Shown one piece after another: positions 16,614 to 25,753 of a stretch of DNA of 33,385 nucleotides. The translations under genes were made by a program, and so were the position numbers. The stretch is from Dimargaris cristalligena (Eukaryota). Below the pieces are notes generated by a model. The model had not been told where the DNA came from and did no database searches. It worked only from the letters and a program-made list of their open reading frames with translations. The stretch is from the NCBI GenBank assembly GCA_003614675.1, contig ML002406.1, forward strand, positions 1 to 33,385, given 5' to 3'. The number at the start of each line of letters is the position of its first letter. The first letter of the stretch is position 1.

Positions 16614-17533
16614 TAATATTCCCCACCTTTAATTTTTTTTGCCCTTCTCCCCTCCCCCAATTCTCTCTCCCATCATCTTCAATCGCCGCGCCCTGTCCAC
16701 TAATATACATTTGCCATTCCTACCGTACTTAATGACATCTTAAATATAATGCATCCAACTAACTTCACTCGCACTAGCCATATTCCCCAATATAATCTTA
16801 AATCGAAATCATGTGCAGCTACCCAGAAGCGGCCGGTTCACTTATGAGGGAGGAGTTAGTCTAATTGACCTTAATCAAGGATATGGTTGAGGGTGGGGAA
16901 TTGGCGTATAGAACTGGGTTTTGTTTATTGAAGGGATATGGTGCCAGTGCTTGGGTAATAGTTAGATTGACTAAATGACTTGGAGTAGGAGATTCTGGAC
17001 CATGGTTTGCATTTGTTGCTGTACCAGAAAGAGAGCGATACATGACAGTTCAAATATACTAATTGTAAAGAATGCCATACCAGTTTCCACATGATATTTT
17101 ACCCCCCAATAACCATTTGGTCTTCAAACACCAATTCTTAATGCATCCCTATATATATATATATAATACGTGTTCACTAGCCATACACGTATGTCCCAAT
17201 CCCAAGCACTCATTAATCCCAAAAATGACCCACCTAAACTACTAGGCAAGCTCACGACGGGAATTCGTATCCACTTATGGATTTGACCCTTGCTTATTCT
17301 AGAAATCTCGCAAATGAGGTGGTAGAGCCCCACAGACTACCCACCGAAACAACCCACCCATGTTACAGTCATTCCCAATCGCTATTAACCGGGCTTTTTT
17401 ATAAAGAGGGGTAGGAAATCCGACCGGCATTAAAGTCTGATAAGCCATTGTTTTGTCCAGCATTACGAAATCGAAAAGAAAAACATTATTAATTCAAACA
17501 GTGCCTGACCGACAAGGACATTTCTCAGTGAGC

Positions 17534-19021
17534 CTACATCATCCGCCGGCGTTTAAAGTGAGGGACCTTCATAGTCAATTTGCTGGCCGTCCCTTCAAGG
17601 GGAACCTGGGGAAGGATATCCAAGCAAAACGCCTGTTTCAGCTGGGGCAAGGGCAGGTCCTTGGTACTGAAGACGTCCTGGTGTTGGTAGGAGTTGTAGG
17701 CCCGGATGAAATTCCGGTAGGCTTCGTGGGCCATCGTATACATCCAGTGGATTTTATGGACATAAGCCTTGGGGCTCTGCCATTCAACCACCAATGGTGT
17801 TGGGATCTTACATGACATGGCTTCGGTCGAGATACCGGCCTTCTTCAAATGCGTGAGATATTTAGGGGATTCATTCTCCAGCAGCAGCAGTAAATGCTGG
17901 GGAGACGGCGACGAACTACCACTAGTCGAGGCCAACAGACGCCGGCTCAAGTCAATATCATCCAGGGTTTCAAACTGAATCACCCACTGGGTAGTCGGTA
18001 GGTAGGACCATTGGGCGGCAAGGGCCGCGGTGGTAATGAGCAAGCCTGCGGTGGATGCGGATTCGAATTCCGCTAGAGAATCGGAGCGAGTACCCGCTGG
18101 TTTGGATTCCAGTACGGTAGTTACGGGTACGCCTTCATTCTGGAGCAACGCGGAATAGAATTGGGCCAGTTTATCGTTGGTGAATAGAACCAATAGCTTA
18201 TCGGACGCATGCAGCTGGTGAATCCGGCGTAGGAGGGGCAGCCGCTGGTCCACGGTACATACGGTGTAAGCAACGTGGGGGAGGTCGTCCGTAGGGACTA
18301 CGGTCTTCTTCTTCGCGGAGCTCACGTCGGCGGATATGAGACTAGGGATCACTTCGATGGACTGGGTGTCCTTGCGGGTCAGACGACGCTCCAGGACGGT
18401 CTTGGCCGGCGGATTCACCGCTTGGGTCGAAAACTGGAGGGTTTGGCGCCGTTTAGTGATGGGCAGATGCTTGAGTATATGCTGCAGCGATTCGGTAGCC
18501 TTGGTGTCGGTCAACAACGAGTCCGTTTCGTCCACGACTAGGCACTGGACGGCCTTAAGGTGCAAATCCGGAATGGCGCGCATGAGTTTAACGAACCGGG
18601 GCGCCGTGGCCACCAGAATATTCACCCCCGAGCGGAGGCGCTCCTCCTGGGAGGCCTGGGTACCGGTCTCCGTAGCGAGCCACACGCCGAGCTTGAGGTC
18701 CGCGGCCAGGTGCTTGAGCACGCGGTAAACGGCGACGGCCCGGTCGGGGGTATGGCAGATAATGAGAGCCCGCAGGCCCTGGCGGGGTCGGATCATGAGG
18801 GCCACGATGCGGGCCACCACGGGAATGAGGTAGGCCAGGGTTTTACCGGAGTTGGCCGGGGAAGTAACGGTCAGATCTTCACCCTGAAGGGCCAGTGGGA
18901 TAGCGGTGGCCTGGACATCAGTTAAGGAGTGGATGCCTAGCTCACTGAGAGCACCCTTCAAGGGATCCGAAATGTCGAGGTCGTCCACGGTTAGTAGTTC
19001 GGCTTCTTCCGGGACTCGCAT
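17534..19021 (-). CDS. HAS1/DDX18-like DEAD-box protein with degenerate helicase motifs (495 aa)
   Basis: First ATG at 19021. Q motif LTDVQATAIP, motif I SGKTLAYLIP; Has1-typical segments RPRQG, GVNILVAT, YTVCTVDQRLPLL, WVIQF..DD and the C-terminal extension AYRNFIRAYNSY...DLPLPQLKQAF. Confidence 0.85.
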   Translation of the reverse strand: MRVPEEAELLTVDDLDISDPLKGALSELGIHSLTDVQATAIPLALQGEDLTVTSPANSGKTLAYLIPVVARIVALMIRPRQGLRALIICHTPDRAVAVYRVLKHLAADLKLGVWLATETGTQASQEERLRSGVNILVATAPRFVKLMRAIPDLHLKAVQCLVVDETDSLLTDTKATESLQHILKHLPITKRRQTLQFSTQAVNPPAKTVLERRLTRKDTQSIEVIPSLISADVSSAKKKTVVPTDDLPHVAYTVCTVDQRLPLLRRIHQLHASDKLLVLFTNDKLAQFYSALLQNEGVPVTTVLESKPAGTRSDSLAEFESASTAGLLITTAALAAQWSYLPTTQWVIQFETLDDIDLSRRLLASTSGSSSPSPQHLLLLLENESPKYLTHLKKAGISTEAMSCKIPTPLVVEWQSPKAYVHKIHWMYTMAHEAYRNFIRAYNSYQHQDVFSTKDLPLPQLKQAFCLDILPQVPLEGTASKLTMKVPHFKRRRMM

Positions 19022-20007
19022 TGTGTGGTGTGGGTTCGTGTATGTGTCGTCGGTAAGGGGCTTCAAGGTACGTGCAACGACGTAGGTGGATGGGCCAAAA
19101 GGTTGGGAATAGCGAACTTGAATTAGTTTCGGGTAAAAAAGTTTAGGAACAGCCAATGGTCAATTCGTAGCCCTACTTCAGCCCTTTCCTAGGTGTGCGT
19201 GCTTTTTTTTTTTTTTTGATTTAACCTGAAATTATTATCACTCCTAAAATTCGGATGCAGTTGGCAGAGATGTAATTTTGTCCTGTACTATTTGAGCAAG
19301 GGATATGATCCTGAATCACGTGATTCTAGTAACACGAAATTTAAGGGGGGTAAGCCCAGTTAATCAACCACCCCGTCTTAACAAGAGAAAACCACCGTAT
19401 ATAGTAATGAAGGGTTAAGAAAGGGCTGGCTAAAGAGAGTAGCTTTGGCACTGAAGGGTGTATTAGTGTAGTGGGGGTTATATTCCAACATAAAGCTGCA
19501 CCAATCCCCATTTACAACTAAAAACCCTATCCCTTCGGCATGGATAACGATCTGTAATAACTATCGCATAAATCGGCCAGTATAAATAATTATAGACTAA
19601 GTAGGCAAATAGCACAATCCAATTGTAACTTCGCCAGGCCCATTCATCTTTCTTTCAGAGCCTTTAATAGATAGGCTGACGAGTCCATATATTTATACCT
19701 AGGTCCTTGCTATTTTTATCTGCCAGCGTTAAAATATCTACTTGTCATTTCAGACATTAAAGATTTAGAGGTAAAAAGCTGTAATGTATGTGTATTTGGG
19801 GGCAACGGGATTGGGAGGTACGGTATGTATTATATTAACGGTAAACGTATAAATTATCTATAGTAGGTAGTGGTTATACAAATAATATTTTGTGTTTATA
19901 CATTCTTGCTAACACACTCCACAGCCCTGTCGCAGCCAATGGTTACGATCCCTTAAGAGCTATTGCAATACATTTATATTATACTATCCAAATTTCGGAT
20001 ATCATAT

Positions 20008-20080
20008 GGGGGGTTGGCGCAATTGGCAGCGCGTGCGTCTCCAAAGCGCGAGGTTGGGTGTTCGAGTCACTCATTCCCCA
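20008..20080 (+). tRNA. tRNA-Trp(CCA), intronless
   Basis: Cloverleaf: acceptor GGGGGGT/ATTCCCC, D stem GCGC/GCGC, anticodon loop CT-CCA-AA, T arm GGGTG-TTCGAGT-CACTC, discriminator A. Confidence 0.9.
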
Positions 20081-20083
20081 TCC

Positions 20084-20088
20084 TTTTT
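20084..20088 (+). terminator. RNA polymerase III terminator
   Basis: T5 run three bases after the tRNA 3' end. Confidence 0.75.
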
Positions 20089-20756
20089 GATCATTCAGAG
20101 CGAATTTTTTGTTTGGAGAGTTTTAGGGAGGCTGATAATATATTTTAACCAAGTAGAACTAGTTTCACCTATCGTTGTTGTATAACAAAAAAAAACTATA
20201 TAGTATTTCCTTCAAAATCCCCCTACAGCATTATTGAGTTTCACCCTTTTAATTTACCGTTTAAAGCGAAACTTGATGGTTTCAGCCTGGCATATTTAGT
20301 GCAATCTTTTTCAATGAGATGATGATTCAAAAAAAACTAGGTACATATAGAAAGCAGTGAATAAATATAACGACACAACTATTTGCTCCTATTTAATATA
20401 GTTAATACTTAGTTATTATTATATCATTTAAACTAACTAATATGAAAAGCGAGTTTGTTCTGCTAACCTAGTGTTCATGTAAATTAAGAAGAGTTGTGTG
20501 CTTTTTTATTGGAAGTAAGGAATAGTACAAAATAAGGCTCGACCTGTAAATTGCAGCAGTAGGGATCGAACGAAGCAATGGGCTGAGAAAAGAGTGAGAT
20601 AGTGATAAATAAACTTTTAAGCTCTAACTCCAAGGGGGGAAGGCAATGTGATACTTGGCGTGGGCCTTTTGCTTGCTGTTTTCGTTAGAATAAGTGAAAG
20701 ACGAGCATTGCAGGGGGAAGAGAGACTCAGCAAATCAGCCTGTTAAGCAGATGGGT

Positions 20757-21986
20757 TTACTGGTTCTCGGGGCGGAGGGAACGGACAGTCTTGCCAGTGC
20801 GCCACATCTCGTGCTGGTTGATGGCCTCGAGTTCCTTCTCGAGTTCCTCACGGTAGTTGGAGGCCGAGTTTTTTTCGATGGAGCGACGGGCTTCGTTACC
20901 GTTGGCAACCTCTTCGTACAGCTTCTCGAACACGGGCTTGGTGGCATCATGGAAAGGCTTCTCCCAGTCCAGGGCACCGCGCTGGGCAGTGGTGGAGCAG
21001 TTGGAGTACATCCAGTCCATGCCCTTCTCGCCGATCAGGGGGTAGAGGGACTGGGTGGCTTCCTCGACGGTTTCGTTGAAGGCCTCGGAAGGAGTGTGGC
21101 CGCGGGCGCGGAGGACATCGTACTGGGCACGGAACAGACCCTGGATGGCACCCATGAGGATACCACGCTCACCGACCAGATCGGAAGAGACTTCGCGCTC
21201 GAAGGTGGTTTCGTACAGGTAACCACTGCCGATGGCGATACCAAGGGCGGCGGCGCGTTCCTGGGCCTGACCGGAAGCGTCCTGGAAGATGGCGATGGAA
21301 GAGTTGATACCCTTACCGTCCTGGAAGAGACGGCGGACGGTGAAGCCGGAACCCTTGGGGGCGGCCAGGATGACATCGATGTCCTTGGGGGGCACGATGT
21401 TGGTCTGATCGCGGTAGACGACACCAAAACCGTGGCTGAAGTACAGGGTCTTGCCGGCGGTCAGGTGCTTCTTGATGGTGGGCCAGGTGTGGACCTGAGC
21501 GGCATCGGAAAGCAGGTTCATGATGACGGTACCCTGCTGGCAGGCCTCCTCGATGGGGAACAGGTCCTTGCCGGGGGTCCAGCCATCTTCGAGGGCCTTC
21601 TTCCAGCTGCGGCCGTCCTTGCGGGTACCGATGATGACCTTGAGGCCATTGTCGCGCATGTTCAGGCTCTGGCCACGGCCCTGGGGACCGTAACCGAGGA
21701 CGGCCATAGTGTCTTTACCGAAAATTTGCTGAAGCTTCTCCTTGGGGTAGTCGGCACGCTCGTAGACGGTCTCCTTGGTGCCACCGAAATCGAGGGTCTT
21801 GAGGGTACGGGCGGGGACAGAGGTAAACCGGGTGGCGGCGGCGGCCCAGGAGTTGGCAGTGGGGGTGGCGCTCAGACGGGTAGCGCGGGCCAGAACGGAG
21901 TAGCAGCGGGCGGCGCCGAGGCGGGAAGTAGGGGCAGCGGTGGCCACGCGGCCAGCGAAGGTCTGGATGGTACGGGTAGCGCTCAT
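20757..21986 (-). CDS. ILV5: Mitochondrial ketol-acid reductoisomerase (acetohydroxyacid isomeroreductase)
   Basis: 409 aa; Arg/Ala/Thr-rich presequence without acidic residues; VYERADYP, LGYGPQGRGQSLNMRDNG (dinucleotide binding), FSHGF, SDLVGERGILMG, CSTTAQRGALDW, C-terminal VRSLRPEN; strong codon bias; intronless. Confidence 0.98.
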   Translation of the reverse strand: MSATRTIQTFAGRVATAAPTSRLGAARCYSVLARATRLSATPTANSWAAAATRFTSVPARTLKTLDFGGTKETVYERADYPKEKLQQIFGKDTMAVLGYGPQGRGQSLNMRDNGLKVIIGTRKDGRSWKKALEDGWTPGKDLFPIEEACQQGTVIMNLLSDAAQVHTWPTIKKHLTAGKTLYFSHGFGVVYRDQTNIVPPKDIDVILAAPKGSGFTVRRLFQDGKGINSSIAIFQDASGQAQERAAALGIAIGSGYLYETTFEREVSSDLVGERGILMGAIQGLFRAQYDVLRARGHTPSEAFNETVEEATQSLYPLIGEKGMDWMYSNCSTTAQRGALDWEKPFHDATKPVFEKLYEEVANGNEARRSIEKNSASNYREELEKELEAINQHEMWRTGKTVRSLRPENQ

Positions 21987-22205
21987 ATTGATTGAGTGTG
22001 TGTTGTTGAGTAGGGGAGAGAAAGAGTGACGACTTTTAGAAGAACACGTTCAAGGGAAATTAAATACAGATGCAGTAATATATAGACTACTATAGTAGAA
22101 AGGCCGGCTGGACAGAATAGCGCGAGCTTGGGGAAACTAATGTGATAAACACGAGGAGAAGAGAAGATGAGGTGAGAAACGGTAGAAAAAGGGCGACCCG
22201 GGCGG

Positions 22206-22212
22206 TTATATA
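22206..22212 (-). promoter_or_regulatory. Putative TATA box of ILV5
   Basis: TATATAA on the minus strand ~220 bp upstream of the ATG, followed by a CT-rich leader. Confidence 0.5.
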
Positions 22213-22575
22213 GGCCGGGGGAATAAGGAGGGAGGGGGGTACAGCCAGTAGTAGAGATGATGGGGGGGGGGGTTGTATGCGCATACATCCCGAGGAGGAC
22301 CACTATACCTGGTGCAGCATAATTGGCTTAAACGGTATGGCCATGATGGCGAATTGAGGATATTACTCATTAGATAGCCCGGCCGGACGAGGTTGGCTTG
22401 GGAGGGGAAAGGCCCGCGTGCTCAGGATGCCGCTCGACGAGAAGAAGGGGAGAGAATTTACGCCAGGGGGCGAAGGAGGGAGGAACCGACGCAGATGGGG
22501 TGGGTGGTGCACCACCACTTAGAGGAAGTAGTAGTATAGAGAGAGGGTATCGCACCTCTCTCTAGGGTGGTAGTG

Positions 22576-24641: not shown

Positions 24642-25753
24642 ATGCTGACCACTCGTTCAGCATTGACCCGGGCCGGAGCCTTCTCCTCCGGGGTATCCCG
24701 CTGGCTAGGGATGGGGACAGTCGTCCCTTTATGCCGTCATCCATTGCACCTGGGTAGCCGGGCTCTATCGACCACTGCCACTACCCTCGACTCGAACCCA
24801 CCGCATCAGTACCGCCGGCGGTTTCCTTCGCCACCCCAGCCCACTGTCCAGGAGGCCGTGCAAAACATCGTTATCAACACCCCCGAGGGCTCCGGTGCTG
24901 GTGTGAACGAAGAGCGATCCTATATTCTCAATGTACTCGTCCAGAACGAACCCGGGGTGCTCAACCGCGTCACCGGGATTATGGCCGCTCGTGGGTATAA
25001 TATCGATACGCTGGTGGTGTCCAAGACGGAAGTGCCGGCTCTGTCCCGGATGACTATTACAATCCAGGCGAACCCCTTTCAAATGACCCAGGCTAAACGC
25101 CAGCTGGAAGATCTGGTAAGTATGCTAACTATCCACAGCCTCTTGATTCACGCCTATTGCTGATGCTAGATCATTCCAACTAGCCAGTGCCGTATGCTAG
25201 ATTATTTTTTTGCTTGGTGCCACGAAACTGATTCAATCATTTCCTAATCTGTTTACATCATTTTATCCGCCGACAGGTTCCTGTATGGGCCGTGGTGGAT
25301 TATAGCGAGTCCAAGATTGTCGAACGTGAAATGCTGCTGTGCAAACTCTCGATTGTCGGTCCGGAACTGACTCTGGCTGCGCGGAACTCGGCCTCGGCGA
25401 CCCCTTCTACCGGGGATGGTGATGGCAACAGCAATGGCCACTCACCCGCCTACTCCGAGCACCTCCTCAAATCCCACGACCACATTCGGGCCATCAAGGA
25501 GCTGACCTCTCTCTTTCAGGGCCGTGTCGTGGATGTGAGCGCCGAAAGCGTGATTGTGGATCTGTGTGCCAAATCATCCCGTATAGATGCGTTCCTCAAG
25601 CTAATCCAGCCCTTTGGTATTCTGGAGGCTGCGCGGAGTGGCATCATGGTTATGGGGCGGTCGGTGCAGCTCAGTATGTTCCAGGAAGAAGCGGAGGAGA
25701 AGGTGGTCAGCAGTGGACCGGAAGTGGATGTCTCAACCCTCCCGCCGGGCTAA
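24642..25753 (+). CDS. ILV6: Acetolactate synthase regulatory (small) subunit, mitochondrial; exons 24642-25115 and 25277-25753 (316 aa)
   Basis: ACT domain LNVLVQNEPGVLNRVTGIMAARGYNIDTLVV; splicing of the GTAAGT...CAG 161-nt intron restores the conserved QLEDL|VPVWAVVDY; GILEAARSG; C-terminal LPPG; N-terminal presequence. Confidence 0.96.

Follow-up and report, generated by a model that had tools for sequence, protein, structure and literature searches.

Yeast Has1 is reported to have separable scaffold and enzyme roles: it joins pre-60S particles and triggers 27SA3 trimming without ATP (PMC3763536), and catalytically inactive Has1 binds the 5.8S/25S sites and not those in 18S, with two molecules per 90S particle (PMC6846684). 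On pre-60S particles, Has1 is described as open and nucleotide-free, docked on helix 16 (H16) of 25S away from the canonical RNA site (PMC6340896), on a platform built by Erb1 (10.64898/2026.05.22.727207, PMC5745149). Debate over whether Has1, or DDX18 in human, needs catalysis on pre-60S particles continues on the basis of point mutants (PMC3763536, PMC6846684, PMC9196750). Few pseudohelicases have been described so far, Utp25 and MUT-15 among them. The PriA protein of Deinococcus radiodurans is reportedly another pseudohelicase. We analyzed a 33,385-nucleotide (nt) stretch (contig ML002406.1, hereafter the window) of Dimargaris cristalligena, a mycoparasitic fungus that parasitises moulds. 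An uninterrupted minus-strand open reading frame (ORF) in it, hereafter the window gene, encodes a 495-aa Has1-like protein (the window protein), which is very probably a pseudohelicase.

Degenerate motifs in a protein with Has1 architecture

The window protein is colinear with Has1 through both RecA domains and the C-terminal extension (CTE), as a preceding sequence-only reading had proposed; the open frame, Pfam and matches in the Protein Data Bank (PDB) agree on this. Pfam places DEAD at residues 34-198 and CTE_SPB4 at 428-473, while Helicase_C (264-335) reaches 16.8 bits, under the Pfam cut-off. The top PDB matches are DDX18/Has1 chains aligned across residues 10-493 (E 1e-48 to 1e-40), with bit scores of 143-169 for Has1/DDX18 versus 56 for Spb4, and within the genome the protein scores 151 bits against HAS1 versus 98 against DBP4. 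Zero variants were found inside the ORF in four of four sequencing runs aligned over positions 16800-22300, three of which may be source DNA. Runs X1 and X2 cross the ORF as one contig at a depth of about 170, and X6 covers part of it; a sequencing or assembly artefact was thereby ruled out. All differences in X2 lie outside the window gene and include two synonymous changes in ILV5.

Every altered motif string quoted in the sequence-only reading is present in the protein (Table 1). Motif I keeps GKT as stated there, and the claim that the Q motif survives stands for T34 and Q37 and fails for its aromatic residues: the aromatic of GF, which is F or Y in 119 of 133 intact relatives, is now I, and the upstream Phe, F or W in 124 of 133, is V12. 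STQ in motif III may be SATQ minus its Ala. Motif VI can be placed in two registers, one of which keeps the first Arg; the second and third Arg, the His and the Gly are gone in both. T139 and R142 of motif Ib, together with R312 and T330, do not vary across an eight-row alignment, and in DEAD-box structures these positions contact the RNA backbone. Judged from the alignment, the RNA motifs are eroded rather than erased.

Of seven scored catalytic residues, four are lost. Among the features of an active helicase, the protein has the Walker GKT and DExD; the Q-motif aromatics, Ia, GG, Ib, V and VI are defective. A complete ATP site cannot form between the two RecA domains when motif VI is missing, and RNA-stimulated hydrolysis and unwinding are lost. 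With motif VI, the ARG of motif V, the Arg of Ia and GG all gone, RNA-coupled ATPase and unwinding are therefore very unlikely as far as the motifs tell, and the earlier view of a catalytically dead protein is very probably correct. Of the traits by which pseudohelicases are recognized (PMC9539457), the window protein shows degenerate catalytic motifs and, in predicted models, a helicase fold; for the third, expression and a function without catalysis, the observations are signs of selection and a promoter element. Motif VI is reported to be needed both to bind ATP and to hydrolyse it (PMC1616962), and the yeast has1 mutants H375E and T230A are inviable (PMC3763536); therefore, the window protein could not stand in for HAS1. 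Weak binding of Mg-ATP by RecA1 via GKT and DExD may persist; the proposed nucleotide binding keeps its Walker A/B basis and loses that of the adenine-stacking aromatics.

An intact HAS1 and two eroded copies

The D. cristalligena genome contains six CTE_SPB4 genes, three of which we labelled SPB4, DBP7 and DBP4 from sequence. Canonical HAS1, which the sequence-only reading had suggested looking for, lies on contig C50 with every motif intact and is identical to a D. cristalligena protein named HAS1-type helicase. Two other identities of the window gene were ruled out: that of a divergent sole HAS1 by the gene on C50, and that of a DBP4, SPB4 or DBP7 ortholog by the presence of each as its own gene among the six. 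Two of the six genes are dead, namely the window gene and a second copy split over two contigs, PAR2. Its Walker A reads AKPDSGQI, motifs II and III read NEAD and TTT, and motif VI is absent; Walker A/B of PAR2 has thus lost K, T and D, and the lesions of PAR2 differ from those of the window gene. PAR2 also has a long N-terminus of its own, a lysine-rich tail, and an intron near the HAS1 intron position. Since this intron lies in the N-terminal part that the window copy lacks, retroposition is supported neither way. One public annotation breaks PAR2 into fragments.

In LG+G4 trees with 20 canonical HAS1 proteins, the window protein falls inside the Dimargaritales clade (support 100/100) and PAR2 is sister to D. 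cristalligena HAS1 (99/98), while a 14-row tree makes the two copies sisters (100/99) that join HAS1 (100/97). Approximately unbiased (AU) tests on the 14-row set under LG+G4 rejected both a window protein outside Dimargaritales (p 0.009) and a grouping of HAS1 and PAR2 without it (p 0.012). Under the site-heterogeneous LG+C20 model with two other dead proteins (P0100 and P0111) included, the Dimargaritales placement received 95/100, with no single inner order favoured. A single clade of four dead fungal proteins is compatible with the data (AU p 0.16); the best trees put P0100 and P0111 outside Dimargaritales. The branch of the window protein is very long, at 3.7 to 10 changes per column. The window protein shares 11 of the 53 residues private to D. 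cristalligena HAS1, against 3/27, 1/24 and 2/22 of those private to sister taxa (pooled 6/73), which favours a local origin. With its RecA1-RecA2-CTE_SPB4 architecture, its closest similarity to Has1 and its position within the HAS1 clade, the protein is of Has1/DDX18 descent. The duplication claimed in the sequence-only reading is upheld by the HAS1 gene on C50 and by the tree placement; on the phylogenetic evidence, the window gene is a HAS1 duplicate that arose in the D. cristalligena lineage.

Of 327 conserved sites, canonical HAS1 itself differs from the fungal consensus at 81; the corresponding counts are 43-57 for three sister Dimargaritales and 3-13 for four further Zoopagomycota. By this count, made on HAS1 alone, HAS1 is accelerated across Dimargaritales and most of all in D. 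cristalligena.

Retention of the frame and the predicted fold

Over 450 aligned codons, identity between the window gene and HAS1 is 0.46, 0.56 and 0.34 at codon positions 1, 2 and 3, and that between the window gene and PAR2 is 0.44, 0.52 and 0.38. Four-fold sites against HAS1 are saturated (0.35 vs 0.33 expected, n=75), and the pairwise nonsynonymous divergence (dN) of 0.81 against a saturated synonymous divergence (dS) of at least 2 bounds their ratio, omega, loosely. GC content at third positions (GC3) is 0.70 in the window gene, 0.60-0.80 in eight other frames and 0.38-0.42 between genes (three stretches). In a simulation, HAS1 was left to decay neutrally until 29% identity, with a transition/transversion ratio (kappa) of 3, 40% GC and all change on one neutral branch. 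The simulated genes carried a mean of 17.6 stops with 0 of 100 frames open, and their GC3 was 0.48. Identity at position 2 minus that at position 3 was 0.03 ± 0.03 in the simulation versus 0.22 observed; placing all change on one branch overstates this contrast, and the stop-codon outcome is independent of that. CpG is not depleted in the window gene (observed/expected 0.95, as in control genes), so decay driven by methylation or repeat-induced point mutation was not supported.

In columns conserved among canonical proteins, the window protein keeps 44 of 107 hydrophobic residues identical and 69 similar, 11 of 27 G/P residues, 24 of 76 motif residues and 16 of 70 polar residues; constraint thus bears more strongly on the fold than it does on the surface. 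AlphaFold2 gave a predicted local distance difference test score (pLDDT) of 85.6 with a 112-row alignment and 35.1 from the single sequence without alignment. The top 15 Foldseek matches of the window-protein model are all Has1/DDX18 chains in pre-60S structures, and the ESM Atlas model (pLDDT 0.74) has template modelling (TM) scores of 0.75-0.79 to DEAD+CTE clusters. Based on these models, the window protein is compatible with the Has1 fold. The open frame, codon-position contrast, GC3 and kept hydrophobic core agree with the retention that the sequence-only reading had claimed, and the window gene looks maintained under purifying selection at the codon level.

An E-box shared with ribosome-biogenesis genes

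The E-box ATCACGTGAT lies about 300 nt upstream of the window-gene ATG with no ATG between; past it, the only features are the tRNA gene and ILV5 with its 3' end. The identical 10-mer is found upstream of HAS1, and the PAR2 upstream region carries GCACGTGAT. With search lengths fixed at 2,100 nt for 24 genes and 1,500 nt for 4, TCACGTGA was found to precede 8 of the 14 DEAD-box genes of ribosome biogenesis and none of 14 others (one-sided p 0.001), and omission of HAS1 left 7/13 (p 0.002). Genome-wide, TCACGTGA has 414 sites versus 329 for the reversed control, a chance of 0.7% per 500 nt. Promoters with this E-box include those of HAS1, DBP4, DBP8, DBP9, MAK5, DBP10, ROK1, FAL1 and NOP16. The ribosomal RNA processing element (RRPE) and polymerase A and C (PAC) motifs showed no pattern in the promoters examined. 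Given the saturation at synonymous sites, a promoter word evolving neutrally would be expected to have disappeared, and we infer that the E-box of the window gene was kept by selection for co-expression with ribosome biogenesis. The promoter thus lends independent, sequence-level support to the suspected link with this process. The E-box signature has been described as holozoan and missing from most promoters of the fungi examined (PMC2570694); the early-diverging zoopagomycete D. cristalligena, in which it marks many ribosome-biogenesis promoters, may have kept or regained it.

The proposal that the C-terminal KRRR is a nuclear localization signal (NLS) is helped by likeness, in that the window protein ends in PHFKRRR and the HAS1 of the same species in PFKRQKKAD; the signal itself is putative. 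The promoter, the CTE and this basic C-terminus point to the nucleolus as the probable location.

Possible role on pre-60S particles and alternatives

We propose that the HAS1 duplicate was kept as a nuclear pseudohelicase, switched on together with ribosome-biogenesis genes, which would act on early pre-60S particles without catalysis. If unable to close, the window protein would fit the open state that Has1 adopts there and would stay in it, with helix 16 docked and the ATP pocket empty, holding the place at the Erb1/Nop16/H16 site or acting there as part of a scaffold or as a brake. The ATP-dependent work on 18S would be left to canonical HAS1. We assign this reading, a pre-60S placeholder or modulator, a probability of roughly 0.45. 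Neither the Pfam family BOP1NT, whose control also matched nowhere, nor a motif pattern found ERB1 in the genome; the sole pattern match is non-coding, and NOP16 and RRP14 were found in the same genome. Absence of ERB1 from the draft assembly is probably an assembly gap or a search miss.

Several observations weigh against this proposal or limit it. Of 70 conserved Has1 residues that are polar or charged and lie outside the motifs, the window protein retains only 16, compared with 59/73 in HAS1 itself, the core net charge is +2 instead of +12 to +25, and the RecA2 KKK patch is SDK; the first two counts tell against the scaffold role in 60S assembly suggested by the sequence-only reading. No complementary retention was seen: the window protein has the consensus residue at 14 of the 81 sites that differ from it in HAS1 and at 89 of the other 242. 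In yeast, K92A Has1 has a dominant-negative effect when overexpressed (PMC3763536), and a dead copy that still docks could therefore be costly. TpA is less depleted in the window gene (0.94) than in five control genes (0.60-0.79), and the 112-row AlphaFold2 model leans on mostly canonical HAS1 rows. The E-box was noticed post hoc and the gene names were assigned in this analysis; the p value for TCACGTGA rises to 0.016 once HAS1 is dropped and FAL1 is grouped with the non-ribosomal genes. The LG+G4 and LG+C20 tree sets lacked a DBP4 outgroup, and a 50-row quick tree that included one puts both copies among long branches outside Dimargaritales. No ortholog of the window protein was found among the best 150 matches from 1.84 billion representatives, a search that would hide relatives above 50% and whose closest non-self match reached 155 bits at 30%. 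None was found in 90% clusters (7,999 candidates scored), where the protein is a cluster of one, or in JGI metagenomes. The ortholog search for PAR2 likewise returned D. cristalligena only.

It is quite possible that the pseudohelicase has left the pre-60S site altogether, its fold and perhaps its nucleotide binding being selected for a new non-catalytic job in another nuclear ribonucleoprotein (RNP) or at one life stage; shedding the Has1 surface would then have avoided interference with the essential parent. The largely lost polar surface and positive charge around a kept core, the very long branch, the absent N-terminal extension and the existence of two copies with different lesions all speak for such a relocation, for which MUT-15, a DEAD-box fold re-used as a scaffold for other partners, provides a reported precedent (10.64898/2026.09.04.749402). 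However, the ribosome-biogenesis-type E-box, the basic C-terminus and the CTE have all been kept despite saturated synonymous sites. If the copy has left the ribosome, its interest would be modest: a pseudoenzyme of the ordinary, lineage-specific kind in a fungus that has received little study.

That the duplicate was formerly selected and became dispensable too recently to gather stops is distinctly improbable. The lack of an ortholog in the databases searched, the low motif retention, the weaker TpA depletion and the loosely bounded omega would fit such recent decay, but the simulated frames, GC3 and position gap speak against it, the E-box and first-ATG context are intact, and CpG has not been stripped. 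There is also a slim chance of a slow or partner-completed ATPase, in which a competent RecA1 would receive its arginine finger from a cofactor and the protein would be a switch rather than a dead scaffold. K60, T61, D164 and E165 are kept against a polar retention of 23%, and three of these four are lost in PAR2, which hints, post hoc, at selected nucleotide binding; several RNA-backbone residues remain as well. Against this, both Q-motif aromatics are lost, and we know of no DEAD-box protein that takes its arginine finger from another molecule. A dominant-negative Has1 mimic delivered to stall host ribosome assembly would draw on the mycoparasitic lifestyle and on the dominant-negative effect of inactive Has1 in yeast (PMC3763536) but is highly improbable, as the N-terminus, read by eye, has no hydrophobic leader, the promoter element is of housekeeping type and the conserved Has1 surface is lost.

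HAS1 and a probably dead copy with a shared promoter type offer a natural test of whether a separate gene can take over the enzyme-independent scaffolding of Has1. Natural dead copies beside their parent are separation-of-function alleles that could reveal the surfaces the scaffold role needs.

Coordinates and neighbouring genes

Table 1 Features of the window, the second copy and motif-eroded relatives (positions refer to the window unless a contig is named)
Feature	Position	Strand	Basis or remark
Has1-derived RecA1-RecA2-CTE protein, probable pseudohelicase, N-terminal extension absent	17534..19021	-	single-exon ORF, 495 aa; sequence and predicted fold
CTE_SPB4 C-terminal extension, Has1/Dbp4/Spb4/Dbp7 type	17603..17740	-	Pfam
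Basic C-terminus PHFKRRR, putative NLS	17543..17563	-	likeness to HAS1 tail; NLS function inferred
Q motif GIHSLTDVQ, aa 29-37	18911..18937	-	T, Q kept; aromatic F to I; upstream Phe to V12
Motif I SPANSGKT, aa 54-61	18839..18862	-	GKT kept
Motif Ia HTPDRA, aa 90-95	18737..18754	-	RNA-binding Arg to Pro
GG doublet replaced by TETG, aa 117-120	18662..18673	-	alignment
Motif Ib TAPRF, aa 139-143	18593..18607	-	T, R kept; G lost
Motif II DETD, aa 164-167	18521..18532	-	D, E, D kept
Motif III STQ, aa 198-200	18422..18430	-	alignment
Motif V region TTAALAAQWSY, aa 330-340	18002..18034	-	ARG and D lost
Motif VI region SRRLLASTSG, aa 359-368	17918..17947	-	His, Gly, second and third arginines lost
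E-box ATCACGTGAT	19315..19324	.	upstream of window-gene ATG
PAR2, second dead HAS1 copy, protein P0367, 705 aa	C1513:3-1490 and C378:23738-24537	+	split over two contigs
Proline-rich ORF, 426 aa	15333-16613	+	converges on window gene; no Pfam match above cut-off
ORF, 619 aa	4900-6759	-	no Pfam match above cut-off
tRNA-Trp(CCA)	20007-20083	+	three runs differ at 20082-20083
ILV5, ketol-acid reductoisomerase	20757-21986	-	
Long open frame antisense to ILV5	20751-21995	+	
ILV6, acetohydroxyacid synthase (AHAS) small subunit	24642-25753	+	
Motif-eroded HAS1-like proteins: P0100 Phlyctochytrium, P0211 Chytridium, P0111 Nadsonia, P0103 Anaeramoeba			database proteins
Motif-eroded HAS1-like proteins: P0143 Leptopilina (wasp), P0176/P0372 Penaeus (shrimps, two species), P0156 Rhynchospora, Rumex			database proteins

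The neighbours of the window gene are the proline-rich ORF, tRNA-Trp, ILV5, ILV6 and an oxysterol-binding protein gene, none of which bears on the finding. ILV5 and ILV6 are divergent, with about 2.7 kb between them, and may form a gene pair for branched-chain amino acids. The differing letters at the end of tRNA-Trp probably stem from other copies of the tRNA, or else from a slip in the assembly at its 3' end. Long open frames run antisense over ILV5 and, on the reverse strand, over eIF4A, and are likely by-products of strong codon bias. Elsewhere in the genome, contig C432 encodes another DEAD-box-like protein with eroded motifs (DELQ, SAT absent) and a mitochondrial-type leader, which may be MRH4-like.

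Relation to known pseudohelicases and dead Has1 proteins

Relatives of the window protein were surveyed for similar losses: 161 were aligned, 14 were dropped for key-site gaps and 147 were scored on the seven catalytic residues, of which 14 proteins have lost at least two (examples in Table 1). The source databases annotate these motif-eroded HAS1-like proteins as ordinary, active helicases, and annotation errors or pseudogenes may be among them. D or E stands in place of the first Gly of GG in 7 of the 14 dead proteins versus 0 of 133 intact ones, and this substitution could stabilise a helix cap after the loss of RNA binding, eased by G-to-A mutation. The two chytrid proteins P0100 (Phlyctochytrium planicorne) and P0211 (Chytridium lagenaria) are 59% identical with shared lesions; this pair is better conserved than the window gene and a better case for experiments. 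In the literature searched, main texts with few from subscription journals, no Has1/DDX18-derived pseudohelicase was described. A broader idea, which we consider rather unlikely, is that the jobs of Has1 have been split between genes, with HAS1 doing ATP-dependent 18S remodelling and a dead copy, driven by the promoter element it shares with HAS1, taking or tuning the ATP-independent pre-60S role. This solution would have recurred in eukaryotes (Dimargaris twice, chytrids, Nadsonia, Anaeramoeba, wasp, shrimps) as an unrecognised class that regulates ribosome output.

Compared with Has1/DDX18 of S. cerevisiae and human (PDB 11aa_p, 8fkp_SW, 8i9p_CE), the window protein shares the RecA1-RecA2-CTE_SPB4 order, colinear over about 470 aa, and differs in being only about 30% identical, in its broken motifs (Ia, GG, V and VI), in lacking the N-terminal extension, in the near-neutral charge of its core and in having a canonical HAS1 beside it in the genome. 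With Utp25/DEF, the pseudohelicase of the small-subunit (SSU) processome, it has the DEAD-box fold and vestigial motifs in common; Utp25 has been proposed to be a ribosome-assembly scaffold or cofactor that arose by duplication (PMC9539457), as is likewise proposed for the window protein. Utp25 is reported as ancient, present from yeast to human and essential, whereas the window protein is known from one species so far, has Has1 as its parent and keeps GKT and DExD. MUT-15 of C. elegans is a tandem-RecA DEAD-box-like scaffold without ATPase (10.64898/2026.09.04.749402), as proposed for the window protein, but its Q motif and DEAD are wholly absent, it acts in small-RNA amplification, and its inactivity was shown biochemically, while that of the window protein is predicted from sequence. 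The model for the proposed mechanism is the engineered yeast has1 alleles K92A, DAAD and H375E, which are dead and yet are reported to join 90S and pre-60S particles (PMC3763536, PMC6846684). These are single changes in proteins with an intact surface, whereas the conserved surface of the window protein is for the most part altered as well.

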